Source: Cyanidioschyzon merolae
Taxonomy: Eukaryota
Length of the DNA: 64,000 nt
NCBI GenBank assembly: GCA_000091205.1
Contig: AP006494.2
Strand: one strand, 5' to 3'
The notes under the pieces are model-generated. The model was not told the DNA's origin. It did no database searches and worked only from the letters and a program-made list of their open reading frames with translations. The number at the start of each line of letters is the position of its first letter. The first letter of the stretch is position 1. A program made the translations under genes and the position numbers. This document shows, one piece after another, positions 6,782-46,480 of this stretch.

Positions 6782-7683
6782 ACGCGCGCGACTCGAGCTT
6801 TCGATAAGCGAAACAAGAGCAGCGCCACCAGACAGACTTGAGCAACTCGTCCTACCGGTTGTCAGCGTGGCACGGAGGACATGTTTATGGAGCCTTTCAC
6901 GGTGCATGCTAAGGAATCTAGCGAAACGTGACTAGCCTCTGGTAACTGCGGAGCGCTGGAGCGCCCAAGCGGTGTTGCGGCAGCGCAACAGCGCGCGCTT
7001 CGCACTGGATGAAACAGCTACGCGGGCGGCTGGATCGGTTCACCAGTCATACACACGCAAGACGATTGGAATCTTGGCTAGAAGCACGACGCTAGCGCAC
7101 ACATTGCAACGGATCAGGAGCTGTGCTTCATGACCCGTGATGGGTATGATTGATGACTCGAGCGGCCTGTGTAGACAGACATCCGACATAAGAGGGAACA
7201 AACGGGATACGAGGAAATCAAGTTCCAATGATTTGCAACTCCTATCCTGTGGAATCAGCTTTTCGCGCTCCTGCGTATACAGCCTGTCGATGCCCGCTCG
7301 GCGAAAAGGACCTGCAGAAAAGCAGCAGTGCGAAAGCGCGGGCGTGAAGCGTCACGACCTGGACATGACGCGCACGAATGACGACTTTGCTGGCAAGCCA
7401 GGCATGCTGGGTCCATCGCCTCTGATCCAGATCAGTCATCCATCGCGTTAAATATTTTTTTGTTGTTGTACGGGTAAATACATGATGCACAGTTACATGA
7501 TAATGCCGGCTTGCGTTCTTCTACATTCTGTGAAACAAACTGCACGGATTCCAGACGAGCGCAAGCGATGTCCATCCAGAGCCCAGCGGAGCGGATTGCA
7601 TCCTCCGGTGACGCGGACCAGTCTACGACGCAGTGGCGCTTGACGTGGCTCCATCGGCCTATCGAACATCTCCTGTAAGCAAT

Positions 7684-12600: not shown

Positions 12601-15600
12601 CCGATCCAGACATCACGCTGACGCTCATGGAATCCATGCACAACTGACTGGAGGGTACTCCCGATGCTCCATGCATCTGTTGAGGACCAGTACCGGCACC
12701 AGCAATCGCTCCCGCACCAACCGATGTATCATACCGCGGCTTAGTTGCACCGGAGATGGCGCTCAAACCACTGACCGGTGCCTTGGCGGAGCGAGCAACG
12801 AACCCCGCCGGTGATAGTGCCCGTTGCCACAGGGTGTCGGTGCCCGGCGACAGGCTCGCTCTCGTGCTCGCAGGACTGCTGTGCGGAAGATCCAATGCCC
12901 CCTGTTTGCTTAGACCAAAGTCGGTCAATTTGATATGTCCATCCCGATCGATGAGAATGTTATCCGGCTTGAGATCACGGTGAACGATACCCGCTTGATG
13001 CAGATATTCCAAAGCGAGTACGATTTCGGCTACGTATTGTCGAGCAACATCTTCATCGAGATAGCCGAGATTGCTCAAGAGCGAGAAAAGGTCACCCCCG
13101 GGCAGAAACTCCATCACCAGAAACAATTTGCGTGCCGACTCGAACGACCAAATAAAGCGGACTACAAACGGGTTCTGGATGGTTGCCAGAATATCCCTTT
13201 CTGCACGCACGCGTCGAACGAGGTTTTTGCGCACGAGTTCGGACTTTTGAAACACCTTGATTGCGTAGAGATCACCAGTGGTTTTCTTGGACGCCAAATA
13301 CACTCTTCCGAATGCCCCGCGAGAGATTGGCTTAAGAATGTCAAAGTCGCGAATACTGGGTACCGCCGGATGCAGATGCGGACTCGCACCCACTCGTAGC
13401 GACTGCCGGGACGGGGACACTTCAGCGCCCCCGGAAGACCGCAAGCGACTCGAAGACGAATCCGAGCGATGCTGACCCTGCTTCCGACTTTGACTCGCGC
13501 CGTGCGCTTCACAAAGTGCATCCTGGAGATGATGACGACGACGACGACGGCGACTCGAACCGGTATCGGAGGAGTGCGCTGCTTCCGCAAACGCGACACC
13601 AGTGTCGGTCTTCGCCGCGTTGCCGAAGCGGATGTCGCCACCGCGATGTACATCCTCAGAGACGAGGCCACGCTCAGCATCGCATGGAGAGGCGGAATCG
13701 GCTGCATCACGTGTTTTCCAGTGAACGTGATCACAAGGCTCAACCGTAGCAGCAGCAGCAGCAGCAGCAGCGATATCGCAATTACGAGCGCTATCATCAT
13801 CAACAACAGCACCGGCACTGGCACCGGCACCGGCATGATCATCATCCGCGGCAGCGTCTTCGCTTGTGCGGCAGGAGACATCCTCCGCTGGGCGGGCTCT
13901 GCGAAGATCACTGGTCAATGCTCCCGACTCGAGGCTGCCGTCGTCAGCGGCGACAATGGCAGGTTCAAACACTGCCGGTATCATGGAAAGCGCTTCAAGC
14001 TTTTGGCTCACCAGGCAGTGTGCTCGTTCGACCAGTGCCAGACACCAGCGAGAAATCGTCGAACTAGTCGTATTGGCAGTCGCTGCCTGGCAGGCTTGCA
14101 GGGCGTGTTCCAACCGAGAACGAACGGCTTCCAGTTTCGCGCGTGCAACATTCTCCTCTAGATTCGGACGAAAGCTTGCCATATCTGAATCCGTTCGCAG
14201 ACGTAAACAAGAGCGAACTTGCTCATAGCTCTGATTCTCGAGATCATCCAGGTCAGCGGGGACAAAGCTGCTGATTCTCGTGCAACTCTCCGACGGCTCA
14301 ACTGCTGCGGCGTAGAGGCAGAGTTTTGCCACGCGCGATAGCAGCGCCTGCTGCGCACTGTCCACAGAAGCAGTAGACACGTCGCCCGCGGGTGCTTCGG
14401 TGAACGCTGAAGAGGTCGCTGCGCGAGCCCCGTGTCGTCCCAGTTTCTCGAGCTGCTTATCGCAGGCAGCAATGAGCACCGCTGCACGCGCTCGCGCTGC
14501 ACAGCATTTGGTGTGCTCCTCGAAGATCTCACACGGGTAGACTTCCTCACAGATGCGGCAAATGAGATAGGCATACGGATCCGTGACTTCTTCGTTTTCT
14601 TCCACGGCGTCCGCGTCCTTCTCGATTGCCTCTTCGTCTTCGTTGGAAATGAATTCCGCTCCAGAACACGGGGATGGCGGCATCGCGGTTTGTAGTGAAA
14701 CTGGGGTTTGTGAGCGAGCCGCAGGTAGCTGGATCAGTTTCGCGGTGGTGTTCTCTGGTCGGTGCAAGCCGCCAGCGTCGGCTTCTGTTGTTCGCACTTT
14801 CGCTAGCTCATTGGTTTCGTTGTTGTTGTTGTTGTTGTTGGTGTTGTTTTCTGCTGCGGGCGCTCCTTTTTCAGATAGGTTAGAGACGTCGAATGGCCCA
14901 TGGACTCGGAGCGAAAGGTTTCCCTCACGACCAGTGGTTTGCAGCGCTCTCATCGCTCGGACTGGATGCACATGAATCGCCTCATTCCGGGCAGCTAGCG
15001 CGACCGTATCAGAGCTGTAGCCTCGCTGAGCTTGTGTCTTACCAGTCAGCAGGGTCGCAAGTACCCCAGCAGGCAGCGATGGACGCTCGGCGGGCGTGGA
15101 ACGCTGCGTCGCCTCCGAAGCTGCTGCTTGCAACCCGGGGGCGTTGCTGCTCCCCGAGTGTACCAGAGTCTGCGAAGAACTCGGTTCTGTCAAGCGTTGC
15201 GTGTGACGCGACTTGTCGTCGTCGTCGTCGTCGTCGGGTTCAGCGCGCAGTTGCGTCGTGTCTGCTTCCGACTTTTCTAGATGCGTCGCAGGCGCCAGCA
15301 CTGCGATTCTATTGGGGTCTCGTTCGACTCCCAGACGCATCGTAGTCGCTTGAGCAACGCCTTGTGCTCCTGTCTCGCGTGCATGTTGTCGTGGACGTAT
15401 GCTCGTAAATAAATGCACATCTGAATTCGCCAAGTTCGGTGGCGAGCGCGGCCTCGTTTCCATGGATGACAGGCATACCGAGGAAACACAACGACGCGGC
15501 GGAAACGTCCAAGCATCTCGTGCAACCGCTATCGAAGGCTGCGGTTTGGCCCAAGGCGCCGGTTCATGAACACGTGCTGCAGCATTCGAGTCTTCCAGTG

Positions 15601-17599
15601 CGCGCTGCGCTTCCGATGTAGGTTCCGTTCGCTCGTAATACGCTGCAGCATACGAGTCTTCCACTGCGCGCTGTGCTCCTGCTGCAGGTTCAGCGACATG
15701 GTTGCTCAGGCTCGACTTGAGCGATATCCGGCCTGCCGCTACTGTAGCAGTTGACAGCTGCGTGCCCGGCTCTATAAAACGCTCATCCGCGGTTCCCGAT
15801 GACCACGACGAGGCATGAGCAGCGTCAGCCGGATCTATGTGCTCCGAACCGAAACCCTTCCCAGTCGACTGAGACATTCGCGTTCGGCGGGTGCCGCTCC
15901 CGCGCTGGCTGTTGCTCTCCGCCCGAAATTCAATGCGCTCAGCGGCTGCTTCGAGGAAACGCGTCAGCCTCGATAGCGTGAAGAGGAGGTGAATCACCGG
16001 CGAGGAGCGATGCGTCCACGAGACAAAGCTTACATGCATCCGCATTCGTTGCAGTTCATTCACGTACTCATGCAGATTGCCGCTGAATGCTATTACGGTT
16101 GAATGGCCCCGTGATACAAACGTTTCCGCCAATAACGCATCAGCGGACGTTGCCAACACGGCGGATGCAATATCCATCATACGGCGAACAGCTTTGCTGA
16201 GCTCGGGTGTCTCCTGCCCCTGCTGAAGTTCTGCTTCGCATTGTGCCATAAACTGCGCCAGCTCGTGATCAGTCTCCTTCTTGATCGCCTGTAACCGTCC
16301 ACGGATAGTTGACACGTTACCAGAGACAGCAAAATAACCCAAAGCACCCGCTAATAAGGCAGAATACGCATTGCCCCCCGAGGCGGCCGCAGTTGCAGGT
16401 GCCGCACCGGTGCCGATCGGGCTCGCCCATGACGCTGTGCGGTGTAGGCGTCTTGTAGTGCGTCGTCCCGCTTGTGTATGGCCCTCCATAAGACGCACCT
16501 GGTGCCACTGGAGCGTCGGCGTTGTAGCCTGGTCCGATGGACCGAGCCATCCGGTGCCGGCAGTGGACCACGATGTTGCCGCAACGCCGCCAGCGCCGAT
16601 CATTCGCCTCCAAGCGGATGCCACTGGGATTTCCCATCGATTTTGCGGCACTTTTTCATGCTCTTGCCGATGATGATAATGGTACTGATGGTGCTGATGA
16701 GCATCATGCTCGCTCTCACGATATTGTCGTCGGTGCGAATACCGATAGCGTAGGCGATGCGGGTCGCATCCCGCCAGTGACGTTGACTCGGGTGGCTCCA
16801 TCCGAAGGAGCATCACGTCTTGGTTGCTGCGCAGTTCGGTCGGAAGCGATGCACTCACGATGTGAGCGTCAGCGGGCTCAGAGTCGCTACTGGGCGCTTC
16901 GCAGCGTGCATCACTCACCAGTAATCGCTGTGACTTGGCAAACGCCTCCGATCGACGTCTTTCCCCAGAGGCTTTGCGTCGTTCGATCCGGGTAGTCTGA
17001 TCGCTCATCCGTGCCCTTCCAGTAGACTCCGCTTCGTCATCATCATCATCATCATCATCACCGTCACCATCGTGATCAGCCAGTTGTTGCAGCCGAGCGA
17101 AAACGGGAACGTCTCCGGTCGCCGCTGGGAACCCATCCGCTTCAACCGCTGCCTGCAGTGCTGCCACGTTGTCAACGCTTACAGGAGTCGAGCTCGCGTG
17201 CTTTATTGTCTCGTTAGAGAGCATCCAACTATCTTCGCGGCTTTCGGCGCCAGCGAGATAACCTTCCAAGCCGCTCGAGTCTGAGCTCCAGCCCGAGTTC
17301 CGTCTGAGGTCGAGCGCGTAGCGCTCCGCCAAGAGCTGCGCTGTTGTCTGTGGTCGTTCAACTGGAACGCTTACACCGACAGCGGTCAGCGCGCTCTGTA
17401 GCGACTGAACCTGGCGCTCGGTGGCGGCATCGCTTACCGGGTCAGCGACAGGCACGTCGCTTGCCTGCGCACCTGTGTCTACGCAAGCGCACTCACTACC
17501 TGGGACGTGCACCGGCTCATCAACGTGCGCACGCTCGCTCTCGTTCGCACCTGCTCGCATCCAAAGACGCGATGACGTCCACGATCGCAGGTTCCACAC
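9689..17599 (-). CDS. Giant (2636 aa) Greatwall/Rim15/MAST-like AGC protein kinase with long low-complexity arms
   Basis: A single uninterrupted 7.9-kb ORF. The kinase domain lies at about 13350-11900 ([16 protein letters not shown] ... [12 protein letters not shown] ... DFGLSK). An approximately 215-aa insertion separates DFG (about 12910) from GTPDYLAPE (about 12250), the hallmark of Greatwall/Rim15. [15 protein letters not shown] tail. A Cys-rich [21 protein letters not shown] motif sits at about 14470-14580. Confidence 0.8.
10094..10143. repeat. Coding microsatellite (GTT)n then (GTC)n inside giant kinase gene (encodes poly-Asn/poly-Asp on minus strand)
   Basis: gttgttgttgttgttgttg followed by gtcgtcgtcgtcgtcgtcgtcgtcg, read directly. 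Similar runs occur at 14820-14850, 15215-15235, 17040-17065 and 13760-13790. Confidence 0.9.
11513..11650. repeat. In-frame 69-bp tandem duplication (2 copies) inside giant kinase gene
   Basis: ctgtccaccctgtcgcatttca[a/g]gatgcgctgctacgtcactccagcgaggctccgaagcgtgca repeated back-to-back. It yields [12 protein letters not shown][P/L]EMRQGGQ twice in the protein. Confidence 0.8.
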
Positions 17600-18799: not shown

Positions 18800-19915
18800 G
18801 AGAGTATGTTTTTCTCAGTTCAATTGTGTGTCAGCTCTCAAGTGAGTGTATTCGAGCGATTTTTCGCGGGTTGTAGCAGAAGCTTTCAAAGTGCGTTGTT
18901 TTGAAAAATAGTCGAGATAAATCGGGAAAAATATGGTTGTAGAAGTGGAGGATCCTGGAGGGCCCCGTATCGCCGGCTGCCGCAAAAAAAAACCGAAGAA
19001 CAGTGCCAACCAAAGAGGAACAACACAGGACCAGGAAGCAAGGCGGCGAGGGCCGACACCAAAACCTGCAGGGAAAACGACAGTACGACGAGATGGAAGT
19101 GAAAGCCTGTCTTTTACGCTGCGTCAAGGATCCGTGCAGGGCAAAGTTGCAAGAGGGCATCAGAAACCGTGTCGATTCGTACTCCAGGAGTATTGGAAAG
19201 GCCTGTTCAGGAATGATGCATGTGGTGAAGGTGATGTGTCGCGACGTGACGGACATCCAAACCGTCGAGGTTCCGGACGAGATTTTCGGCAAGACCTTCA
19301 TTCGTCACCTGATGGTTGGAACAGGGGAAACGTCGAGGAGAAATGAGCGAGTTCGTGCCCTCCACGAAAATTACACCAAATACCGCTCCAACGATACTCG
19401 ATACACGGGAGACTCGCGTATTTACGAATACGGGGCGATCAAGTACCTCACGAACCTGAAGAACCACGTGACCATGAACCTCAAAGGCTTCATGATACGC
19501 TCCGTCTTTGCCCTCGACCCGGAGCTGTCTCGCATAGGGATACGGGCCATCATCGACGGCATCAAGAACGATAGTCGGAATGAACAGGAGATCGAATTTG
19601 CCGACAAGAAGACATCACGCAGAGGAAAGAATGAACCTTCTGGAATCCCTGCGGCTATTCAGGAGCACCGTGCAGACTCGGGGCTTGTCAACCCAGCGGA
19701 TAAAGTATCAGAGATGAAAAAGATGACGAAAGATTTTATCCCCGCGTCCAGCGCTATTCCGTGTTTTTGGAGCGAGAACTCGAACGCCAGGCGGAGATGG
19801 AGCTCACTAGGGGAATACGTGAAGATTCGGAGAAGCGGAAGGCTTTCGTAATGGGTAAGCGCTTCAACGTCATTCCATTATGCAACAGCAAGTAGCACTT
19901 TGTGCGAATCGACGC
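18800..19915 (+). mobile_element. Fanzor-like element, 5' part only (left UTR plus N-terminal about 275 codons), truncated at a junction with an unrelated left-end repeat
   Basis: The 5' non-coding block (ttcaaagtgcgttgtt...) and coding sequence match 37250-38330 of the longer copy. YDEMEVKACLLRCVKDPCRAKLQEGIRNRVDSYSRSI matches YDEMVVKTFLLGHMKDPYKEKLRDAIETRVDSYSKSI, and IKYLTNLKNHVTMNLKGFM matches MKYITNLKNHLTKNLERFM. There is an internal frameshift near 19700. Confidence 0.6.
19093..19915 (+). pseudogene. Fanzor-like N-terminal coding fragment (frameshifted, truncated)
   Basis: Shares a conserved ATG (gagATGgaagtg versus gagATGgttgtg at 37481) and about 55 percent aa identity with the 37481-38330 region. 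The track ORF start at 19003 is a GTG, not ATG. Confidence 0.55.
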
Positions 19916-19917
19916 TA

Positions 19918-20140
19918 GCGTCCTTGAATGCACAAAACGACCAGTGCATCCGAGAACAGGTAATGGAACATGGAGGTAGGGCGCATCATGATGGACGCTT
20001 TCCCAAATGCTTGTACCCAGCTCGCAATCCTGGGTCCCTGGTCAACGTAAACGTTTTTTGAACAAAAATGCCTGAAGCAGCTGCATCGGGACTGCAATGC
20101 TGCCAGTATCGACCTTCGACAGTTGATAACGGAACTGGAG
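19918..20140 (+). repeat. Left-end-type repeat, copy A (solo), family shared with 36900-37080 and 57055-57330
   Basis: Three-way alignment: aaacgacc..ccgagaa..ggtaatg..ggaggtagg[g/t]gc..at[g/c]a[t/c]ggacgctttccc[a/g]aa..cg[c/a]aat[c/t]ctgggatcc[c/a]tgg..aacgt..ttg..aaaaa..., extending to aacggaactgg. Confidence 0.55.
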
Positions 20141-22275: not shown

Positions 22276-22632
22276 GCGGTATGCTCATGGACTCGTGGAG
22301 CGACGGAAGCGCCACCAGTGACCGCAACGTCTCGAGGGCGGTTTCGTTGGCTGCTTTCGCTGCGCTCGCCATTCTCCAGGACTCGACAACGACGACGACG
22401 ACGACGACGACGACGGGGAGAGCGGCTCGGTATTCACAACGGTTATAGTGATGGATCCGAGCTCTACGTCGTCGTCATCGAATATCTTCAGGTCGTCGGA
22501 AAGCAGCGAATCACTGCGCAGTGCGGGCAGCGGCTTTGGCTCAGGGATCAGCGGTCGTGGCGGCATTGCCTGAACGAGAGAGTTCCTCGTTGGCGTTGGA
22601 GGCAGCGCCAGCCGTGCTTCTTCAGGGCCGCT

Positions 22633-29884: not shown

Positions 29885-30950
29885 CCATACCTATTACTTG
29901 GATTTTGTATTTCTTCAAAATAAACGCACTTGTTAATGCCCTTAGATAAGGACCTTTTCGGAGGCAGGAGGACCTGCGGAAGAAAGACGACTTGTGCTCG
30001 CGGTTTGTCCCCGCGGGCTGCACGCTTCAGCGATTCCTCCAGTGAAGCGATCATTATGTGTCACAACAGAGAACAAGCCTTCGATGGGGATGAACCACGG
30101 AGCGTACGGAGGAACCACAAGGAGGTCTAGCACCCAACAGAATCCTCAAAAGCTCGAATGCAAGGGAAACAGTGAGATGCCACGCTGTCCAATAGAGGAA
30201 CGTCGCCAGACGTCAGGGGTAAAGTCGTCAATCCTTTGATAAACTGGGTGCTATTATGTGAGCCTTCTCCACTGGGGAAACTGATGTCGCCACTTGAATC
30301 CACTGCAGCTAGAGCAGATGATGATGTCGTCGTTCTCATCGGGTTCGACTGTGCATACGACGGGCTCCCTCTCCACGAATACCCATATACGCTCCCACGT
30401 TTCGTCCGAAGAAAGTCCTATCAACAGAAAAAAGAAACCGACGATCCTGTGCTTCTCACAGATCGCGACGCTCGATAAACCCTCTCGTTGGGATTTCGGC
30501 AGCAGATAGCCGAGTGTGAACTAGGACTCTCTTCTTGCGACTGTGCCCCTGTGCGTTTCGTAGGACATGAACTAGCCGTAGAGAAACAGAGATTCCGGTG
30601 GTGGCTGCAATCATCGCTTTTATTTTCCGCAAGGTGAACAAAGAGTCGGTTTTGTACCACTGGCCGCAAACAGTGTTTAAGAATATCGGATTCTAACGCG
30701 GACCGCATACACTCCTCTCTTTCAGCGTTCCGCAACCATTTGAAGACTGTGGTATGACTGACCTGAAGGAGGAATGCAGTATTCCTTGCACTGTTCAGTA
30801 AACAATAGTTCTTATAGACGATTCGTCTACGATCTATACAATACATTGCATTGTGATTTCGACCGCCTACGATACACCGCTACGAGGAGGGCACGGTCGA
30901 GTGAAACAAACCTGAGTCAAAAGAATATATAGGTTCACACATCAAGATTG
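29885..30950 (-). mobile_element. Second copy of the composite repeat (HTH-like ORF 30846-30421 plus Fanzor C-terminal fragment remnant 30054-29890), truncated before RuvC-III
   Basis: MIASLEESLKRAARGDKPRAQVVFLPQVLLPPKRSLSKGINKCVYFEEI matches MIALVGESLKRTSHGDTLTHTVFYQQVLLPLGWFSPRHINKCVHFRKI at locus 1. DNA homology continues through 30421-30950. Confidence 0.55.
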
Positions 30951-32177: not shown

Positions 32178-33300
32178 ATCTTTTGCTCCGCGGTGCGAGG
32201 CAATCTTCTGTTCCGGTAGGTTCGGTGTTGGTCTGGTATTCGATCTAGTGCAGGGCCGGTGCAGCACTGTGCTCTAGTGGTCGCGTGGACTGCCACAGAA
32301 CCGGGGCCAAAAGCCTTTGGGTTGTGTGCTAGCTCAGGGATCTGCGGATGAGCGGCGTGACGACCATGCGCGTTCGTCATTCACCGATGCTGGACAGCAA
32401 TGGTCACAGTCGACCTCCACGGCTGTGTCGAAGTCGGAATTCGCCTGCCTGGCAAATATAGCACTTTCCTCTGTAAACTGCGTGGAACGATCATGTCTAG
32501 TTTTCCATCGTCAGCTGAATCCATGCAGGCGCCCCAACGGCGACGCCAAATCCCCAGTTTACGACCGGATTGTATCGTCCGACTCGGTGAATGCGACGAC
32601 TGGACTAGTACTGGTCAAAGCACATCGCTGTCGTTGTTGCTGTTGCTGCAGCAGCGGCAGCAGCGGCGGTTATGCTTGACCAGCGTGCCGCCTTTCTGCA
32701 GCGCCACAGCCGCGGTCAAAGCGTCCGTGCGCAAAGAACGCGCTGAAATATCCAACACCGTACGCATCTCCACCAGGCAAGAGTTAGGGACCAGCATGCA
32801 TCAACATCTGACTTTCACAGACCGCTACAGTTTTCATGCTCGGACGCTCCATTTGCGGATCTTCAACATTAGCCAAGCGTTGCTGCATCCTTTTTCTCGC
32901 CGCATGAGCCAGCAGAGGCGAGCTCCAGAGCGCCGTGGGTGACTGCCGTTTCGGCTATGAATCCTCGCGCCACACCAAGGCATTGTTCAGCGGAAGCGTA
33001 TCGCGTGCTATCCACCGACTGCTCGTGCCCGCATGCGGACCGATATCACGTCGGGGCACCGCTTGTTGTAACAAGCAGCGAGCACGCTCGGTCAATGAAC
33101 CAATCATGTGCAGCGTTTCCATGCCGCTCGAAGCTTGCTCGCTATCCCGAAAAGTGTACGTTCGCTCGCAAACCCTCCTCGCTAGTCAACGGATCGTCAT
33201 GATGAACCTCCAGGGAAATGAATCCCGCGTTATCGTCGCTACCCGTGGTCGGGACTCTGCTCGTATTCGATTCCAAAGCTGCGAGCTTCAAATCCGACTT

Positions 33301-35028: not shown

Positions 35029-37480
35029 CCTTTGGAGAAGTTTGTTGCCTAACCGACCCTACCAAACCAGCTTCAGAAGTCGCGGTTTTGGTCAACTCAA
35101 ACGTGGACTTTGCGTCGTGCTGCGGACAAACCCAGACAGCGCTGGTTGTCGCTTGGCGGTGGCGTCTCGCGGGCGCAGCACGCCGGCGTTGCCGCTGCGG
35201 ATGCTACACTCGAGTCGGATAAAAATCGAGCACAGAATAGCTTTCCATCTCTTCCCAACACTTCATTTATTTCATAGATTTTTCTTAAATGTACAACCTG
35301 AGCGATCGAAGTGCAGCAATGAGAGATGAAGAGATCATGCGTAAATGAAGGATTCTTGGTCGTTTTTTGGAGTGGCTCTTTCGACGCTTTTCCGCTGGAC
35401 CTCGTTACGTCATCACGATGAAGGTGCGTCACCACCGACGTCACCACGCGTGCCCGAAATAACCGATATTATTATCCAGCTCACACGTTCAAGGTTTTAG
35501 CCTTCTCCGATCCTTACGTGCAGTATGCTCTAATTCACGTACCCGTCGAGGTTTCGAGCTTTCTATTTGAAGTCATCTGCTGGGCGCACTCGTTGGCGCC
35601 TATGGATTGACGGGACATATACTCGACGGCGTGCCTCGATGATGTTTCCGCAGGCTCATGCAGAATATGTTATGAGTTTCTCATGTCAACGGATCGATTC
35701 CGTTCCAAACGCGAATCCTCCTCTCTTCGTGGCCATAACTACAACAAAACGCGACAGCAGCATGATTCCTGTAACGGGAGACGCGCCAACAGGCTCCCGC
35801 CTCTTCTGTCTGCACGGAAACGGGTGCCGGATTCGCACCTGAGCCATCACAACGATCGCTTGGAGTGGAACGTGCGCCAATGCTTCGCGTGAAAGGAGTA
35901 TCGACGGATCGAAACTTCTCGACTTGTTTTGCATACCGAGCCTCGCTCCTGATCCTGTTTCCGTAGCGGACAATGTCGCATTCCACAAATCCTCTATCGA
36001 ATAAGACAGCGTGCCGTTGCGCGTGCAGCGCACAGAGTGCTCATCGACGGGATCGCGAAGAAGAAGCTCTTCTTCGTAGGGTATTGCACAGGGCGCGTAA
36101 ACGGAGGAAAGCATCGAGGCGCGCCGCTCTCAACCCGTCCAGGGCAAGTACCGGGCAATGACGCAAGCGTTCACGCGCCACAGATCTACGCTCGAGGAAG
36201 GACGGGGTTTCGTGGACTTCCTGAAACATCTAAGCACATTCAAACGTCATCGTTGCAAAAGACGCACTGTGGCTGTATAAAACGAATAGAAACAACGCAA
36301 ACGAAGCGTACATCGTACCTACTGCTTCTGCGTAAACAACGTCGACAACACCCAGAAGCCCCCACTCGCGACATGCACGTCACCATCAACATCCCGCAAC
36401 TGCTTCCAACGGAGCTGGGGGCAACGGCGAAACCGACGTATTGAACGCCAGCGATAAAAGAGCATATACAAGAGCAATCATCAAAAAACCCGCAAAGACT
36501 TGTGTTGTTGATGAAGATAGAAACCTAGAACTTAGTGTTTACGTCCGAGTTCACGAAATGGACCCATCCCATGGTTCATACGAACATCGCTGCCTAGCGC
36601 AGGCGCTCCGCGAGGATGCGATCATTGCGTGCAGATCGCCTCAGCGAGAGAGCGCCCCATCGAGATGCTCGCCCCAGGGTATATTCTAACAGCCAAGTTT
36701 CTCCAGCGTGTCGTGCAACGAAGACAAGCCTGCATCCGCAGACTGTCCGAGCACAAACTGACGACGAGACCCGATTCTACGTCGGGTGAACCACGCCTCG
36801 AGCCGACGCCCTTTGTGGTATAGCAAAGCCGTTCGAGCTCTATGAACTATCTGCTCCAGCGGTTCAAGCGCAAAGGTGGATGATTAGGGTAGGTACGAGG
36901 CACACACGATAGGACGTATGAAACGACCAAAATATCCGAGAAGAAGTCTAGGTAATGTAACTTGGAGGTAGGTGCTTCATCACGGACGCTTTCCCGAAAG
37001 CCGTTATCCGTTCCGAATTCTAGGATCCATGGTGAATGAAAACGTCTTGTCAATAAAAAAATCGCGCTCAATGGGCGCACCCCGGAGATCGGGCAGTCAA
37101 CTGACGCGATGCGCGTGCCGTTGTTGAAGGGAAACTCAATTGGGATCAGTAACGTGTTGTTCAGCTGTGAACGTCGGATATCGGTTCAGGCCATAGCAAA
37201 GTACAGTCTTTCGGTTCATTTTTGTTTCAAACTTCAAACAAGTCCAGTCAAGTGTTTTTTTGCAGTATATAACAGCAGGGTTCAAAGAGCGTTCTTGTTC
37301 AAAAAAAACTAATAAAAGGAAAACTATGCAAAAGTAAGTCGACGATCCTGGAGGCTCAGTGTCGCCGGCTACCAGAAGAAAACAAAAAACAGTGCCGAGT
37401 CCAGAAGAAAATGAAGAGAAGGAGGACTGAAAGGGGAGGCTCTACGTCGAAGGCGGCAAGAAAGACGACTGTACGACGAG

Positions 37481-39740
37481 ATGGTTGTGAAAACCTTTCT
37501 TCTTGGACATATGAAGGATCCCTACAAGGAAAAGTTGCGAGACGCTATCGAAACACGTGTCGACTCGTACTCGAAGAGTATTGTCAAGGCGTCGTCAGGA
37601 CTGATGCATTTAGCGAGGGACATGTACGAATACGTCGCGCACATGGAAACAGTCGAGATTCCAGACGAGTTTTTCGACAAGACGTTTATTGGTCGCCTGA
37701 TGCTTGGTACAGAGGAAGCGCGGAAGGAAAATGAGCTAGTGCATGCCCTCCACGAAAATTTTGCGGAATTCCGCTTCGAGGGTATTCGAATCAAGGGTGA
37801 CTGGGGTATTTAAGACTCTGGGGCAATGAAGTACATTACGAACCTGAAGAACCATTTGACAAAGAACCTGGAACGCTTCATGAAACGCGCCGTGTTTGCA
37901 CCCTACCCAGGCATCTCTTGCAATGGAAAATGGGCGATTATCCATGGCATCACGAATGATCGAAAGTATGAAGATGAGATCGAATTTGTCGACAAGAAGG
38001 CGTCAAAAGAGAGCACGAAAGAAGCTTCTGCGATCCGCGCGGTTTTACAAGAGCATCGTGCGCGACTGGGGCTGGCGAATCCAACAGGCAAGGTATCAGA
38101 GCTCAAAAAAGATAAGGAGAGATACTATCGCCTCATCCTGCGCTATTTTGTGTTGTTGGACCGTGAACTCGAACGCGAAGCGGAGATGAAGCTGAGTGAA
38201 GAGACAAATGAAGAGTGGGAGAGACGGAAGGCTTTCCTAACGGGGAAGCGCGTCAATGTGGTTCCGTTGGGCAACATCAAGTCACATTTTGTGACTATCG
38301 ACTCCGCAGTCCTTCATGGCATCATGAGGGAGATCAGTCCCGAGTTCGATGTTAGCAGGGAGGAATTCTCCGGTGAAAACCGGGAGACGTACTGGATGAG
38401 CATCTTCGATTTCAAACGTCCCAAAGTGAGCAAGAAAAAGGTATTCACAGGGTCGATCGAAACAGATGGAGTAGCCTTGTGTGTACACTATCGGCGGTTG
38501 AAGAAAGTTCGTCCAACTCCGCCTTCGGCTGCGCCCGTCATGAAGGATGAAGAAAACAAAGAGGAGGTTCCTGTGACGCAGGAGGAGCAGGATGACGACC
38601 TTGTCGTTGGCGTGACGAAGGATGAAGAAAACAAAGAGGAGGATCCTGTGACGCAGGAGGAGCAGGATAACGATTTTGTCGTTGGCGTGACGAAGGATGA
38701 AGATGAGAAGGAGGCGAGTCCTGCGACGCAGGAGGTGGAGAATAACGACTTTATGGTTGACGCGACGAAGCATGAAGAAAAGAAGGAGGCGGATCCTGCG
38801 ACCCACAAAGTGCAGGATAACGACTTTGTCGTTGGCGCGGACCCTGGGAATACGAGTATCATAAACATCGCTGCTCCCAAGCGTGCGGAAGATGGTACTG
38901 ATGGTAACTTACGTCAGAAAGACATGCGTCTGTTGAGGTTCTCGAGAGCCAGATACTATCGAGAATCGGGAATCATAAATGCAAGGAAGAAAATCGAGAC
39001 TTGGAATTCAGGAATGAAAGAGCACCTGGAAGCTTCGAGCGAGGTGACGAGCCGAGGAGCGGACTTTGAAGCTTTTCGGAAATTCACGGAAGTTCGCGTT
39101 GCTCATTGGGAGGCGCCGTGGGAGGAGTATACCAAGCCCCGGTGGGCTCGTTGGCGTATGAATTTGTATTGTGGGAAGCAGCGGGCATTCGCGAATTTTT
39201 TCAATCAACTGAGTGCCCTGAAGGAGAATCAAAGTGAGAGGTTGGTAGTGACGTACGGAGCAGGGCGCTGGATGACCCAAAAAGGAACTACGCCAGCTCC
39301 AACGACGAGAACGTACAAGGAGTGTGCACGGCGTTTTGTTACGATACCTGTAGATGAGTTCCGAACCTCGTATACACACCATGAGCTGGTGTGTACACTT
39401 CAGAGAGTTCGAGATGGAAAAGTGCCAGACGAACCCTGAGGATATGAAAAAGTACGGACCGCTGACGGAGGAGCAAATGGAAAGGAGAGCGAAATTTCGA
39501 GGGCTACTTGCATTAGTAAGTACAACCAGTGATGGCACGAAACGTATGGAGTTTGTGAACCGTGACTTTCATGCCGCTGTGAATATACGGAGATGCACGG
39601 TGCTGGAGAAGAGACCTCCAGAGTGGACAAGAGAGAACTTTGTTGGACAACCTCTCAAAGTCGAACTATATGAGAAAAAGTTGGAAGCAATAATAGGTGG
39701 CCGGTCCAGAAAGGCTGGGACGCATCTGCACGTCAGTTGA
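37481..39740 (+). pseudogene. Fanzor-like nuclease ORF, disrupted by in-frame TAA (37811-37813) and a +1/-2 frameshift in a tgtgt run (about 39387-39397)
   Basis: Three track ORFs (37481-37813, 37826-39439, 39354-39740) concatenate into one protein when aligned to the 19093 and 4795 copies. The TAA replaces a sense codon (GI*DSGAMKYITNLKNH versus YEYGAIKYLTNLKNH). The frame changes exactly where ..HHELVC / CVHFREF overlap. Confidence 0.65.
38543..38840 (+). repeat. Four tandem approximately 75-bp repeats inside the Fanzor ORF encoding 25-aa acidic units (KDEENKEE[V/D]PVTQEEQD[D/N]D[L/F]VVGVT)
   Basis: Read directly from the protein and DNA. The last unit runs straight into the RuvC-I strand [12 protein letters not shown]. 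Confidence 0.75.
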
Positions 39741-39827
39741 TGACGATTTGTATAGCGCGCGTTCGCCGCCACTACTGTACACTGCCAGCGACGTCGTTCG
39801 ACTTTCGAAGGGCGGTGACACAAGACC

Positions 39828-40871
39828 GTGTACATAAACATGTCTCAGTTGGATGACACACACGATCTACTAAACATGGGGGATGCGGGTTCCGGATCGA
39901 AAGAATCAGACTCTGCCTTGAGGCGTGGTGGTGACGTTTCGGGCGGCAAAGCAGCGCCAGTGAACGGTGCCGTGGCTGCTTCCGAAAGCGACAACGCAAG
40001 CAGCAGTAGCGCCGCATTACGTAATAGCAGCGCGTCGTTCCGGGAAGGTCCACCTGGAAGGCCACCTCTATTGAGCCAGAGGTTTACGGTGGCCCGTCAG
40101 CATCTACCGGGTCAGCTGCATGAGATCCTTATGTGGCGGAACAAGTACCGCTCGGGGCTCGCTTTCGCCTTGGGTAACTTGTTCTTCTATTTCACCACGT
40201 TCGGGGAACTGAGCATCATCACCGTATTCTCTATGATCGTGTTTTGGATCGTGCTACTGGGTTCGTGTCTCGTTCTCCTGAGCCGCGCACTGGCGTACCT
40301 GACGTCAGCGAGCCCCGTACCTGGCGCATCACCCGTTGGTACGACGGCACCGACGCGTCGCTTGCTGAACCGAGAAACTGCGGAGCGGCTCACGGAGAGC
40401 ACCATGAAAACGGTTAACGGGTTGGAGAACCTTTTGCGCGACGCAGCGCATTGTCGTGATTGGCAGCTCACCGTGAAGGTGCTCCTTGGCTCCTATCTGA
40501 TCGGCAAACTGGGACCGCTGTTTCTGAATATGTACATGGGATGGCTCATCTTTCTCAGCGTAATGACGTTACCCAAGGTTTACGAATGGAAGCAGCGTGA
40601 CATTGACGATCTCATTCGGGAAATTCAACCCGTTCTCCAGAGCAAGCTCTATGAAGCCGAGGCGCTCATCAAGAATCATATCAGCAGCGTGCTCTCCCAG
40701 ATACCGCCCAAGGTCCACGAGTACTCCGAGATGCTTCGAGCGCAGCTGCGCGCGCTGACGGGCGCATCCGACCGTGCACGAAGCAGCAGCAGCCGCCCGC
40801 CGTTTTCAGCCGGAACCAGTGCCGCAACATCGTCGTCCATGACAACCAGCGCTGAAACAAAGGAAGACTAA
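39828..40871 (+). CDS. Reticulon-like protein (reticulon homology domain)
   Basis: W..KYRSGLAFALGNLFFYFTTFGELSIITVFSMIVFWIVLLGSCLVLLS, then a loop, then VKVLLGSYLIGKLGPLFLNMYMGWLIFLSVMTLPKVYE. Two long hydrophobic hairpins with the conserved GN..F and W motifs of the RHD. Confidence 0.65.
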   Translation: MYINMSQLDDTHDLLNMGDAGSGSKESDSALRRGGDVSGGKAAPVNGAVAASESDNASSSSAALRNSSASFREGPPGRPPLLSQRFTVARQHLPGQLHEILMWRNKYRSGLAFALGNLFFYFTTFGELSIITVFSMIVFWIVLLGSCLVLLSRALAYLTSASPVPGASPVGTTAPTRRLLNRETAERLTESTMKTVNGLENLLRDAAHCRDWQLTVKVLLGSYLIGKLGPLFLNMYMGWLIFLSVMTLPKVYEWKQRDIDDLIREIQPVLQSKLYEAEALIKNHISSVLSQIPPKVHEYSEMLRAQLRALTGASDRARSSSSRPPFSAGTSAATSSSMTTSAETKED

Positions 40872-41496
40872 GAGGCATCAGCAGGAGCGGTTATGGGCAT
40901 AAAGCTTAGTCTGCGATCTTCACAACAGATGAAACTGGTGTATTTTAAACGCGAGGTGAGGGGATGGAGATCCATTGTATTTGGACTGGTATAAAGTGCT
41001 TGAACTCGTTCGCCCTGGGCAGCATGCAGACGCTCACCATCCTTCCTGGCGAGGAACGCGTTTCGGACCGTGTATGTCTGCTGTTGACGGCTACAGCAAC
41101 TGACAGACGCCTGCTGCGCGTGCCTGTGCGCCGCGTGAATGAAGCAGGAGCAGCATGCCCTGCGCTCACTTGGACAACTTGCTCATAACCCGGAGACTGC
41201 ACCGTACGTGGCGACCAAGTTGTATCTGCGTTGCCGAGAGCATGCCTCACGCAGACGCGCCCTTCGAGTAACGAATGGGATACCGCCGCTACGGAGGATA
41301 CCCGGGGGGAATCGTCATCGCCACCATCCCCGAGGAAAGACGCGCACCTCGATGGCTGCGCCTCTCGAGCGGGGCGAGGCGGCCGCCGTCGGCTCCATGT
41401 CATAAATGTCTAGTTTGATCTCATTCGAGGCGGAAGTGCTGACAGCGCTGTGCGCCTCGATAGACGGCTTCACTGGCGCGTTCCAGGTGTGCCATT

Positions 41497-43191
41497 GTGT
41501 GCCCTGCTACGAAGCGCACTCGATCCTACTGGGGGTTACAGGGTGCCCGCTCGTGCTTTCCAATCGACGAGGACATGGGGGATTTCTTGTTAAACGGGAA
41601 CCCAAAGTCGCCAGTGGAACGCAAGCTTGCGTCTTCGCCCGTGCAGAAAGCAAAGCCGCTGCCTCCGTGTCCTTTTAACGAGCAGGAGCTTTTTTACTGC
41701 AGCGACGGTGCCTCCGCTGCGGAAGTTTTCGAGAACTCCACCGTAGGCTACGCTTACAACGACATCATACTCCTGCCTGGGCATATCTACTTCTCTTCGG
41801 ATGATGTGAGCTTAGAAACGCGTATATCGCGTCGCATCGCGCTGAAAACCCCGCTTGTCTCGTCGCCGATGGATACGGTGACCGAGTCCGCGATGGCGAT
41901 TCACATGGCGCTGCACGGGGGTCTCGGAGTCATCCACTACAACAACACGATACGTGAACAGAAGAAAGAGGTTGATCGGGTGAAGCGGTTCGAAAACGGC
42001 TTTATTACGGACCCCAAAACGCTCTCTCCGGAACACACAATCGCCGACGCGAGAGCGATCAAAGCGCGCTACGGCTTTATGGGTATACCGATCACGGAGA
42101 ACGGCGCCATGTATAGCCGGCTGCTGGGGATTGTCACGAATCGTGACATCGAGTTCATCCGCGACCCCAATACCAAGCTCGGCGACGTCATGACCCGAGA
42201 CCTGGTGACTGCCCCCGAAGGCATCGGCCTCGATGAAGCGTACGCGATCGTGAAGGAGAGCAAGAAGGGCAAGTTGCCGATTGTGAATGAGCGCCACGAA
42301 CTCGTAGGACTTGTTGCACGCACGGACATCTTGAAAAACCGGGATTTTCCGAACGCGACAAAGGATCGGGTGGGAAAGAAACTTCTCTGTGGCGCAGCGA
42401 TCGGTACACGCCTGGAGGATCGCGAACGCCTGGATGCACTCGTGGAGGTCGGGGTTGACCTCATTGTCCTTGATTCGTCCCAGGGCGACTCGGTATTTCA
42501 ATTGGAGATGCTTCGGTATATTAAGAACAAGTACAGCCACCTCGAGGTCGTCTGTGGGAACGTTGTGACCACGACCCAGGCGTACCATTTGCTCAAAGCA
42601 GGCGCTGACGGGTTACGCATCGGTATGGGGTGCGGCAGCATCTGCACAACCCAGGAGGTCATGGCGTGTGGTCGACCACAAGCCACTGCAGTGTATCAGG
42701 TAAGCAAGTTTGCGCGCGAGCACGGGGTCCCGACCATTGCCGACGGCGGTGTGAGCAGCATCGGCCATATTATCAAGGGTCTCGCATGTGGCGCCAGCTG
42801 TGTCATGATGGGCAGCATGCTGGCTGGTACCGAGGAGGCACCCGGCGAGTATTTCTACAAGGACGGTGTTCGCCTGAAAAAGTACCGCGGAATGGGTAGC
42901 GCTGAAGCAATGCAAAAAGGCAGCGCTGTGCGCTATTTTAGCGAAGATGATCGGATTTTTGTGGCGCAGGGGGTCAGCGGCGCCGTCGTCGACAAGGGTT
43001 CACTACGACGATACCTCCCGTATTTGATCAATGGTATCAAACACGGTTTTCAAGATCTGGGCGTACCCAGTTTGGAAGAGTTGCATAACCGGCTGTACAA
43101 CGGAAGATTACGGTTTCAAGTGCGCACGCTCGCGGGCCAACTCGAAGGTGCCGTGCACTCTCTCTACACTTATGAACGTAGCGCAGTTTAG
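41497..43191 (+). CDS. IMPDH: Inosine-5'-monophosphate dehydrogenase (with CBS pair); the likely true start is Met at about 41575
   Basis: [50 protein letters not shown] region, GAAIGTR, catalytic loop [39 protein letters not shown]. Confidence 0.9.
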
Positions 43192-44046
43192 CTGGCCGAA
43201 GCAGGTACTGCGACCTGGATCAGTCGAGTCTCCGTCTATACCTATGTACACAGCGTGGTGTTGATTTTCCCTGGAGGTCTTGGAGCATGTCGACGTCGAG
43301 CCAAGGCGCCAAGCGCACCCATCTACCAGGCATGTATCCGCTTTCCCGGACACGACAGACAACGCCGCCCGAGAAACCCATAGCCACGCGAGCACGCGCC
43401 CTGGCATACAGGCCCGGTGCCGTTGTGTCCCCCGTTTCCCGAGACAGGTCATAAACAAACCTCAGAAAAGCAGACTCCCACGACTAACGGTTACCGCTTG
43501 CACGCCTCATACGCTGTGCATGCTGCGTACGATCGACGGCATCGAATAAGCGCGTCATGAGGTTGCCGTTTGAGAGCGCCGGCCCAGAACGCCAAGCTAT
43601 GAAAAGCGCGCAGGTACCGGAAAAGCAGCTTGGTTTGTTACTGGAGCGAGGTTGTGTGCAGCTTTAGGAGGCGAGACATGCTGGAGACCGCGTTTCTTCA
43701 GTTGTTCCCGGTTGAAAAACCAGGAACAAGCAACCATTCGTCAACTGTGGTGGCACCGTGCGAAATGTTTGCATGCAGCATCTCGTCCACTGGCCTGGGA
43801 ACGTGCACGAACCGCTGGACGGTGCACGGAAGCCTTGCACCCGTCGTTTGGAATCCAGGCGGACACGAACAGTCCAGTCGCGATATCATGCAGGCATGCC
43901 GCTGACAACGCTGAAGGCACTGCTCCAGCGCTCTAGTCGTGTTGGATTAGAATGAAGCACTGAACTGCTTTCTGTATTTCTGGGCTGGGATTTTTCTCCG
44001 ACTTTTTTCTCTGAGACATACGGCCTCGGCGCTGGGAACGCAGCTA

Positions 44047-44672
44047 CAAGGGTTTACGGATGCGTACGCAGTTTGAGAATTCTCGGACGTCTTTTCGGTG
44101 TGGCCTGTTCGACTTTCTGCCGCTGGCTTTCGGTACATTACCGGACTGAAGATGGCTGGTGACGCTCTCGGAAACGGAGTCGTAAACTATCCGACATCAT
44201 GATCGAACGCTCACGTACAAATATTCATTCCTCAGTTTTCCTTACGTGTGGCATAGTTAAATCGTGCATGCTTTCTGTTTCTCTATCTTTCTATTTGACG
44301 CAACTCCCGGGGGCTGCAGTTCGTTGTCATGGACCTACGATCTTGTGAATTAGTCACCAAGCGCTACCATCGAGTTTTTTCCCTCGTCAATCCAGCTGCA
44401 CAAATTGCTATGTGCACAAGTTTCGCTGAAACAGAAAAAAGATAGACAGACGGCCAGCGTACGAAATCTGAGCATGCCAAACGTAAGGAAAACTGAGGAA
44501 TGAATACTTGTACGTGAGCGTTCGATCATGATGTCGGATAGTTTACGACTCCGTTTCCGAGAGCGTCACCAGCCATCTTCCGTCCGGTAATGTACCGAAT
44601 GCCAGCGGCAGAAAGTCGAACAGGCCGCACCGAAAAGACGTCCGAGAATTCTCAAACTGCGTACGCATCCGT
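44047..44672. repeat. Large near-perfect inverted repeat (2 x approximately 205-bp arms, 44047-44254 and 44468-44672, about 97 percent identical) around a 213-bp spacer
   Basis: Reverse-complementing 44468-44672 reproduces 44049-44254 with about 5 mismatches. The identical peptides MYRKPAAESRTG.. and MYRMPAAESRTG.. on opposite strands in the ORF track are its signature. Confidence 0.9.
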
Positions 44673-44890
44673 AAACCCTTGGTGGTGCTCGCTGAATGTC
44701 CGGAATGTACATCTGAAAAGAGTATCGAACAAGTCGCAAGGCAGGAGCACAGCGAGTAGTTCTGTGTTCGATTGTAATCTGACACGGGTGTTCGGTACAC
44801 GCATCAAAGTACATGCGTATCGTCGCGAAACTGCACGGTTCCCATGCTTGCCGCCTACCACGCAGCACACCCGTGATAAATCGGATATCG

Positions 44891-46480
44891 TCAAACCTGC
44901 TTTTTCGATTCGCTACTATTTCCCTGCTCGAGATGCTTCTGCTCTACGTTGCCGTTCCCATCGGATACATCTGCTTTGCCGCTTGCGTCCGGAAGAGCTC
45001 TAGTCCAGCCGATCTCGGTGACGAGCAGGGCAACTCGCTGTTTGAAGCCGGCTTCAGCGAGCGTCATCGCGCTGTGGCTCGCTGGCGAATACGCTCGCTT
45101 GGGAAAGTTCGTGGTGAGCTCGAAGCGATCAAAGTCGATATCGGCAGAGGTCTCGGCCCAGTCGAAAAGATCGCGGAAGCTCCGTGATAACTCGAAGCGA
45201 CGCTGAGTACTCTTTCCGTCTGGTAAGCGTAGTAGCACTGTGACGACATGCTCACCCGGTTCTGGCTCAGGGCCTAGGGCAGCCCGCTTACGATCCAGCA
45301 TCGCCATCCGTTCGCGCCTTCGTTGATCCTGCTCCGCTGCTTCCTCACGAGCGCGTTGCTCGAATTCTCGACGGGCACGTTCCGCTGCTTGATCCGCCGC
45401 CAGCGCCTCTTGAAACTCTCTATCTTGCTCCTCACGCAGTCGCTGCGCTGATCGGCGTCGCTCACGCATGGTATGAGCAGTTCGAAGCGCATCCCCGTAC
45501 TCCAGAAGCACATTCTGGAGCCATAACAGCACATCAGTGGCAGTGATTGGCGCGTCTCTGCCACCACGCATCGAACGATCCAAATCACTTAGTACTCGAA
45601 GATCGATCAGCTGCCCGAGCGGCCATCGACGTGAAGCGAAGACCACCGCCAGGTACGGGTATCCGGCAGGTGTGAAGTAGGAGGCCAGCTCTACTGCTTC
45701 AGGAGAACGGTTCACCGAGGCTGCATAGAAAACAAAGTTCTCATTCACAAACTGAATGAAGCTCTCATCCGAAAGTATCTCACGGACGAAACGATCTGTC
45801 GCGTGGTGAATTTCTGAATGCAAGTAGAGCAGCACCAATTTGCACCTCTGCGTTGAGTGCTCCAGGGCTTCCTTGAATGTTCCATGGTAAATCGTTGGAT
45901 AGCGGATTGTCATACCGTATCTAGTGCGCAAGTTCTCCTCTAGCTCGGCGACTGCGGCTGCGCCCACAGCTCGCGAGCGACCAGCGTATCGGTAATAACG
46001 ATCTATGCCCATAATACGAGTCACCAGAGATGCGCACCATGCTAATACCATGCGTAATGCTTGGAAGGGGAGCGCCAGGAGCCGACGCAGATGCCCCAGC
46101 ACACCTGAAGGTGTTGCTTGTGCCAGTGCCGGCTGCAGCGCCCGCTCCGGTGTCGACGTTTCCGCGAGTGCGGGTGTCAGCGGCTGCGACTCACTGAGCC
46201 TAGACGCGTGCAGCTGCCCAGAGACCGGGGCACTCGACAGCTCGGACGCATCTGGTGTAGTGCCCGAGGTGTCAGATGTTGACGCGAATTCCAAACTTCC
46301 AGTTCGATTAGGCGGCTGCAGTGCGCCCTCGACACCGCGAGTCAGGAAAGCATCAACGGCTCTTTCAATGTTCCAGTTGTGCGCAGACAAAATGGCTCTC
46401 GCAACTTCGTTATCATCCAGAGCGGCGATATTCTTGAAAAGTGCGAGGGTTTCGTTCTGAGAATCCTCCGTAGCAGCCAT
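44891..46480 (-). CDS. UBA-UAS-UBX domain protein (UBXD7/FAF-like / plant PUX-like p97 cofactor)
   Basis: An N-terminal UBA-like region (ALFKNIAALDDNEVARAILSAHNWNIERAVDAFL), a thioredoxin-like UAS (KLVLLYLHSEIHHATDRFVREILSDESFIQFVNENFVFYAASV..YPYLAVVF), a coiled-coil region with ERARREFEQRAREEAAEQ, and a C-terminal UBX (QRRFELSRSFRDLFDWAE..RFELTTNFPKR). Confidence 0.75.
   Translation of the reverse strand: MAATEDSQNETLALFKNIAALDDNEVARAILSAHNWNIERAVDAFLTRGVEGALQPPNRTGSLEFASTSDTSGTTPDASELSSAPVSGQLHASRLSESQPLTPALAETSTPERALQPALAQATPSGVLGHLRRLLALPFQALRMVLAWCASLVTRIMGIDRYYRYAGRSRAVGAAAVAELEENLRTRYGMTIRYPTIYHGTFKEALEHSTQRCKLVLLYLHSEIHHATDRFVREILSDESFIQFVNENFVFYAASVNRSPEAVELASYFTPAGYPYLAVVFASRRWPLGQLIDLRVLSDLDRSMRGGRDAPITATDVLLWLQNVLLEYGDALRTAHTMRERRRSAQRLREEQDREFQEALAADQAAERARREFEQRAREEAAEQDQRRRERMAMLDRKRAALGPEPEPGEHVVTVLLRLPDGKSTQRRFELSRSFRDLFDWAETSADIDFDRFELTTNFPKRAYSPASHSAMTLAEAGFKQRVALLVTEIGWTRALPDASGKADVSDGNGNVEQKHLEQGNSSESKKQV

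Follow-up and report, generated by a model that had tools for sequence, protein, structure and literature searches.

A 635-bp palindrome between convergent IMPDH and UBX genes of Cyanidioschyzon merolae: a probable inverted duplication of a polyadenylation module

Introduction

Hairpin-dependent formation of transcript 3' ends is exemplified by the intrinsic terminators of bacteria and by the "hairpin rule" of Mimivirus, where transcripts hold the complete hairpin. Large palindromes that undergo concerted evolution are also familiar, for example those of the human Y chromosome and the inverted repeats of plastids. Closer to the present subject are the canonical poly(A) sites of Cyanidioschyzon merolae itself, where 93% of primary sites have UAAA as their poly(A) signal, placed 3-35 nt (mean 17) before the point of cleavage, and where 63% of genes use more than one poly(A) site (Schärfen et al. 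2022, PMC8831791). Convergent genes of yeast can share a bidirectional termination zone of ~120 bp, in which one short palindromic motif, UAUAUA, is associated with overlapping 3' UTRs (bioRxiv 10.1101/2022.11.02.514956). For C. merolae, our literature searches brought up no published MITE, foldback element or palindrome.

Here we describe a palindrome lying between two convergent genes in a 64-kb stretch of C. merolae DNA (the window), and compare it with each of these systems. Transcript ends map to both of its arms, and its origin is most readily reconciled with inverted copying of a sequence that directs cleavage and polyadenylation.

Results

Structure and setting of the palindrome

The flanking genes converge as originally described, with stop codons at 43191 (IMPDH) and 44891 (UBX). 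The features of the locus are as follows.

41575..43191, + strand: IMPDH coding sequence, 538 aa, ATG at 41575; identical to C. merolae 10D XP_005536866.1
44047..44254, + strand: left arm, 208 nt, from alignment; sense for IMPDH transcripts; arm position 1 = 44047
44255..44473, no strand: spacer, 219 nt; its central part is unique sequence by shuffle test
44474..44681, - strand: right arm, 208 nt, from alignment; sense for UBX/FAF2 transcripts; arm position 1 = 44681
44891..46480, - strand: UBX/FAF2-like coding sequence, 529 aa; identical to C. merolae 10D XP_005536867.1

The original prediction of an inverted repeat at 44047-44672 is borne out by arms that match far beyond chance. A repeat search delimited them broadly as 44040-44290 and 44438-44688, at 91% identity, and found no other large inverted repeat in the region. 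Within these limits, local alignment of 44047-44254 with the reverse complement of 44474-44681 defined a high-identity core of 208 nt with 5 mismatches (97.6%), all of them substitutions, at arm positions 55, 82, 101, 175 and 202 as numbered from the outer tip. The earlier count of about five substitutions thus stands; the right arm, formerly placed at 44468-44672, was off by 6-9 nt, and the element and its spacer measure 635 bp and 219 nt rather than 626 bp and 213 bp. The terminal 40-mer of the arm occurs exactly twice in the 64-kb window, against an expectation of zero.

Complementarity had also been described as decaying inside the spacer. It is detectable, at marginal significance, in the ~55 nt next to either arm (score 11 vs 4.9 +/- 2.0 in shuffled sequences, with 32 of 2000 shuffles reaching 11), and is absent by the same test from the central ~110 nt. 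The ~50 nt at either end of the spacer retain weak complementarity, with indels, and are rich in pyrimidines when read in the direction of the transcript that enters from that side. No known RNA was found in or near the arms with Rfam gathering thresholds over the whole window, with permissive thresholds over 43100-45000, or with ARAGORN for tRNA, and a scan for prokaryote-type terminators detected in each arm only a small GAGAATTCTC stem followed by a T-run, at chance frequency. The other three convergent gene pairs in the window (gaps near 6782-7683, 22276-22632 and 32178-33300) show only trinucleotide-repeat complementarity and no such inverted repeat, which argues that the palindrome is not a general device.

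Repeats of other kinds are scattered through the window. Tandem duplications occur at 1548-1759 (two 106-bp units, 98% identity) and, inside a very long ORF (9689-17599), at 11513-11650 (two 69-bp units, 96% identity); tandem repeats of 75 bp, 80-86% alike, occupy 38536-38835 inside the ORF at 37826-39439. Three dispersed pairs of 190-300 nt and 72-80% identity, two direct and one inverted (4967-5266 / 39406-39705; 19045-19932 / 37433-38321; 3973-4162 / 30691-30880), may represent paralogous gene segments.

Occurrence among natural populations and relatives

The closest named relatives of the IMPDH protein are from red algae, and its 90% cluster includes C. merolae 10D XP_005536866.1 together with Cyanidiococcus proteins. 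The UBX/FAF2-like protein carries UBA_4, FAF1 and UBX domains; among the neighbouring genes, recorded Pfam hits are to Reticulon, IMPDH/CBS and UBA_4/FAF1/UBX. Exact-protein look-ups with the window UBX ORF and with P0126 (the 10D IMPDH) gave no record, and the locus was followed through environmental variants, each of which, among those compared, differs from the window protein by at least one residue. With both flanking proteins identical to those of 10D, the window is C. merolae 10D or a strain that cannot be told from it.

Environmental contigs from C. merolae-like populations in JGI and ENA assemblies share ~99% identity with the window. In five (L014, L015, L016, L024, L025) the sequence extends, in the order of the window, from IMPDH across both arms and the intervening spacer to UBX, and a sixth (L004) begins exactly at 44047, covers the entire palindrome and reaches past it into UBX and further. 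Many shorter contigs break at or inside an arm, as expected of short-read graphs at an inverted repeat. Every C. merolae-like contig that reaches the site carries the arm. SNPs number 1.4-2.4 per 100 bp of arm and, comparably, 1.0-2.5 per 100 bp of flank and spacer, so the arms give no sign of unusual constraint.

Two further features of these contigs lie upstream of the palindrome. Over 37574-43300, L014 and L015 are ~97.3-97.5% identical to the window; upstream of 43300, other field contigs reach ~99.4-99.6%. In the IMPDH 3' UTR (43223-43300) the window has one ~72-bp unit where every environmental contig crossing this segment has two in tandem, the extra copy being seen, for example, in L001, L003, L007-L009, L011 and L014-L033.

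In Cyanidiococcus yangmingshanensis (JANCYV010000016.1, contig L010) the order Reticulon, IMPDH, convergent UBX is the same as in Cyanidioschyzon. The orthologous convergent pair is separated there by an intergenic spacer of 1129 nt, which contains a ~50-nt direct repeat (..CATCTATGCGCTTT..ACAGAATTCAAGCCAAT.. found twice). This intergenic DNA shows neither an inverted repeat nor similarity to the arm and cannot be aligned with that of C. merolae outside the coding ends. The palindrome therefore arose, or survived, on the Cyanidioschyzon side only; an unalignable spacer does not show which of the two arms is the older.

Transcript ends within the arms

Among the environmental contigs are some of gene length that start a few hundred nucleotides upstream of an ORF and end in runs of A. 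From this shape, the A-tails and a matching study (PMC11662350), we infer that the samples yielding them are RNA. They are probably the metatranscriptomes (Poly-A and RiboMinus) and metagenomes that JGI produced from Lemonade Creek in Yellowstone, where a "C. merolae 10D-like" population has been reported (PMC11662350). The transcript features are listed here, with the tailed UBX-linked contigs after them.

43452..43455, + strand: proximal IMPDH poly(A) signal UAAA, with cleavage at 43472; outside the palindrome
44183..44186, + strand: UAAA poly(A) signal of the left arm, arm positions 137-140; second TAAA past the IMPDH stop
44203, + strand: distal cleavage/poly(A) site of IMPDH mRNA, arm position 157, 17 nt past UAAA
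44508..44521, - strand: cleavage/poly(A) cluster of UBX/FAF2 mRNA, arm positions 159-176, 19-36 nt past UAAA
44542..44545, - strand: UAAA poly(A) signal of the right arm; first UAAA downstream of the UBX stop codon
44672..44675, + strand: UAAA antisense to the arm, at the outer tip of the right arm; mirror copy at 44053-44056, - strand

L005: last window base 44518, tail A13
L006: last window base 44508, tail A9
L037: last window base 44508, tail A13
L039: last window base 44521, tail A14

The four UBX-linked contigs run from the UBX coding sequence into the right arm; the left arm adjoins the IMPDH flank in many environmental contigs. On the IMPDH side, L001 matches the window up to 44203 and then carries A12, where the genome reads CGAACGC. 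Contigs L028 and L032, IMPDH-linked and from two other samples, have their last base at exactly 44203, and L030, also IMPDH-linked, stops 5 nt short of it, at 44198. Since genomic contigs from similar samples have non-A sequence at the tail positions in both arms (CGAACGCTCACGTACAAGTATTC at the UBX site), the A-runs are not templated. Tails of A9-A14 in the sense of the gene are thus present on L001, L005, L006, L037 and L039. A further contig, L033, ends at 43472 with A13, as fits the first UAAA after the IMPDH stop (43452), and IMPDH is thereby seen to be subject to alternative polyadenylation, with a 3' UTR of ~281 nt (proximal) or ~1012 nt (distal). The UBX 3' UTR measures ~370-383 nt.

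Each arm contains a single sense TAAA, at arm positions 137-140, in a region where this tetranucleotide is rare (about 1.6 per kb per strand), and the observed ends fall 17-36 nt beyond it, at arm positions 157-176. This agrees with the 3-35 nt interval described for the species (PMC8831791). The sites also resemble canonical C. merolae sites in the placement of UAAA ahead of a non-templated poly(A), in having several closely spaced cleavage positions, and in the proximal and distal sites of IMPDH; they differ in that ~210 nt of UTR end and downstream sequence is mirrored in two copies serving two genes.

The IMPDH distal site is represented by one tailed contig (L001) and by the two contigs that stop at the same base. 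In principle, its end could be an assembler join of IMPDH read-through reads to UBX poly(A) reads, because both mRNAs share the same arm sequence in sense, and from arm position 83 onward the IMPDH and UBX arms of those strains carry no distinguishing SNP. The arm of L001 has T55 and T82, vs C55 and A82 in UBX transcripts, so that at least its first 82 nt derive from the left arm, and the end positions also argue against a join, being 157 in IMPDH-linked contigs and 159-176 in UBX-linked ones.

Mature IMPDH and UBX mRNAs, each containing one arm, end 304-317 nt apart and do not overlap; the two UAAA copies are 356 nt apart. The locus is like the yeast zones in that, in a compact genome, one intergenic region stops transcription from both directions and symmetry underlies its two-way use. 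It departs from a shared terminator of that type, with its single palindromic signal and overlapping 3' UTRs, in having two separate 208-nt copies, a UAAA signal that is not palindromic, and mRNA ends ~300 nt apart. Read-through also occurs: seven RNA-type contigs (L007, L021, L026, L031, L035, L036, L038) pass the sites to the arm end or the spacer, and none recovered from RNA-type samples contains both arms. No transcript end was observed at the antisense UAAA copies at the outer tips, which, judged by their placement, could possibly be back-up signals for transcripts crossing the whole palindrome.

Exchange between arms and orientation of the spacer

Positions 55, 82 and 101 lie within 101 nt of unique flanking sequence, so that a single read or k-mer can anchor their haplotypes to one side. 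Two haplotypes, TTT and CTG, are each found on IMPDH-side and on UBX-side arms in different strains or contigs, a pattern to which mixed-strain assembly could contribute. Position 175 (A/G) is likewise polymorphic on both sides; position 202 is in every case linked to its own end of the spacer. The occurrence of the same polymorphisms at the same sites in both arms suggests arm-to-arm gene conversion, with the caveat that mixed-strain assembly could inflate the pattern. Gene conversion would explain the presence of "fresh" arms beside a decayed inner part. The earlier description of an old palindrome with fresh arms is compatible with this evidence, but the inner decay is of marginal significance only.

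Twelve contigs cross an arm-spacer junction. Nine hold the spacer in the window orientation, comprising six genomic assemblies (L004, L014, L015, L016, L024, L025) and three RNA-type UBX read-through contigs. The remaining three hold it flipped: L002, a DNA assembly, passes at 13833-14326 from UBX flank through the arm into flipped spacer, as does L034 at 2096-2521, and L022 does so at 4364-4723 from the IMPDH flank. The flipped spacer could reflect inversion by recombination between the arms, or it may reflect assembler ambiguity, because arms identical over ~200 nt in those strains leave the assembly graph unable to fix its orientation; in RNA assemblies, too, the read-through paths of both genes share the arm.

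In its near-identical arms, unique spacer, haplotypes common to both arms and possible spacer-flip isomers, the locus recalls large palindromes maintained by concerted evolution. It differs from these in being at least three orders of magnitude smaller and wholly contained in 3' non-coding sequence, and in that its conversion and flipping are deduced from assembled contigs, not reads.

Discussion

The structure of the element, the polyadenylated ends that map to each arm and the spacing of the signals are direct observations. We put at roughly three in four the probability of the whole explanation that best accommodates them, namely that each arm is the poly(A) site of the gene reading into it and that the element consists of a cleavage/polyadenylation module duplicated tail to tail in inverted orientation. 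A copy would then comprise the terminal ~160-175 nt of a 3' UTR, including UAAA and the points of cleavage, plus a well-conserved stretch of ~35-50 nt downstream. Because the copies are inverted and the genes convergent, each gene transcribes its own copy in the same sense, and the RNA polymerase II transcripts of IMPDH (+ strand) and UBX/FAF2 (- strand) are cut and polyadenylated 17-36 nt past UAAA. The palindromic shape would then be a by-product of the way in which a second poly(A) site originated, rather than an RNA hairpin terminator.

The direction of this duplication, the gene conversion and any selective benefit are inferences. The right (UBX-side) arm is probably the original, since UBX has no other UAAA before the arm and IMPDH has its proximal site at 43472. 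The left (IMPDH-side) arm would be the inverted copy, now acting as a distal or back-stop site that catches IMPDH read-through before it enters the UBX gene, and the high identity of the two would probably be kept up by the arm-to-arm gene conversion suggested above.

The element had been proposed as a possible bidirectional terminator or hairpin-forming barrier. The outcome is as anticipated, in that the poly(A) sites of both convergent genes lie in the arms; a hairpin mechanism is not what the mature transcripts indicate. In the fullest version of this alternative, which we regard as unlikely, read-through RNA folds into a ~208-bp stem, or the DNA extrudes a cruciform, bringing about cleavage or termination or blocking polymerase between the genes. 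The full element is indeed predicted to fold as RNA into a near-perfect hairpin (-468 kcal/mol, z = -59), RNA-type contigs do reach past the poly(A) sites into the spacer, and each arm has an antisense-strand UAAA at its outer tip. Against this, a lone arm is structurally ordinary (z = 0.08), and every tailed transcript that reaches the palindrome stops in the first arm it enters, at positions 157-176. The locus resembles hairpin-dependent 3'-end systems in placing a palindrome between convergent genes at transcript ends, and is unlike them in that its mature mRNAs end before the spacer. Since those mRNAs hold only one arm, normal 3'-end formation needs no hairpin; the full-element stem, as predicted by folding, would form only in transcripts reading through both sites, and no both-arm contig came from the RNA-type samples. 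Cruciform extrusion is disfavoured by a spacer of 219 nt. A statement in PMC11376382 has C. merolae devoid of RNAi machinery, which also weighs against a role for the folded RNA.

An extension of the same idea, quite unlikely in our estimation, would make the palindrome an actively recombining switch or insulator in nuclear DNA. A flip of the 219-nt spacer would swap the sequences downstream of the two poly(A) sites and so retune the choice of 3' ends by IMPDH and UBX, and transcripts escaping both sites would fold into the 208-bp hairpin and be cleaved as a fail-safe. Its point of contact with the data is the flipped spacer in three of the twelve junction contigs, for which assembler ambiguity offers the other account. 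If true, it would constitute an invertible regulatory element in a eukaryotic nucleus.

Very unlikely, as we judge it, is the insertion between the genes of a MITE or foldback DNA transposon, a possibility raised at the outset, with use of the arms for polyadenylation being secondary. Long inverted terminal repeats, a non-repeated middle, small size (635 bp) and lack of coding capacity are shared with such elements, and the orthologous gene pair of Cyanidiococcus yangmingshanensis has no such structure between its members. However, terminal inverted repeats, here 208-nt arms of 97.6% identity, are a feature of any inverted duplication, and the Cyanidiococcus spacer, being unalignable, does not constitute an "empty site". 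Flanks reading ..GCAGCTA|CAAGGG ... CCCTTG|GTGGTGC.. confirm that no target-site duplication is present, with no direct repeat of 2-10 bp or of any other length at the arm tips. The search for other copies of the arm likewise returned this locus only: the 64-kb window contains no further copy or fragment (best unrelated blastn E = 0.03), and a scan of JGI metagenome contigs for exact matches to the terminal 20-mer, in assemblies that hold 23-48 kb contigs of this alga, recovered three contigs, all from this locus. A search for a 46-aa antisense ORF, used as a proxy for arm copies, gave no candidates, yet was uninformative in that it missed the orthologous locus too. The site is occupied in every strain sampled. 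In contrast to foldback elements and MITEs, the palindrome lacks a target-site duplication, is confined to a single locus as far as can be tested, and showed no insertion polymorphism among the strains sampled.

That the palindrome is an artefact of chimeric reads or mis-joining has a negligible probability: short-read contigs do often stop at or inside the arms (L001, L003, L018-L023) and three carry the spacer in opposite orientation, but the complete structure recurs in the same arrangement in the window and in six independent JGI/ENA assemblies, with unique flanks on both sides (L004 in part) and with arm-specific SNPs linked to each flank.

As a mirrored polyadenylation module, the palindrome is a single-locus curiosity and not a general mechanism. 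It offers an example of how a compact eukaryotic genome may gain a second poly(A)/termination site by inverted copying beside a convergent neighbour, with the consequence that two unrelated mRNAs share the same ~160-175-nt 3' end. Because C. merolae is genetically tractable and has efficient homologous recombination, the locus is a ready test bed for three questions: whether a back-stop poly(A) site protects a convergent gene from read-through, what sequence suffices for 3'-end formation in red algae, and how a small nuclear palindrome evolves through gene conversion and, possibly, inversion of its spacer.
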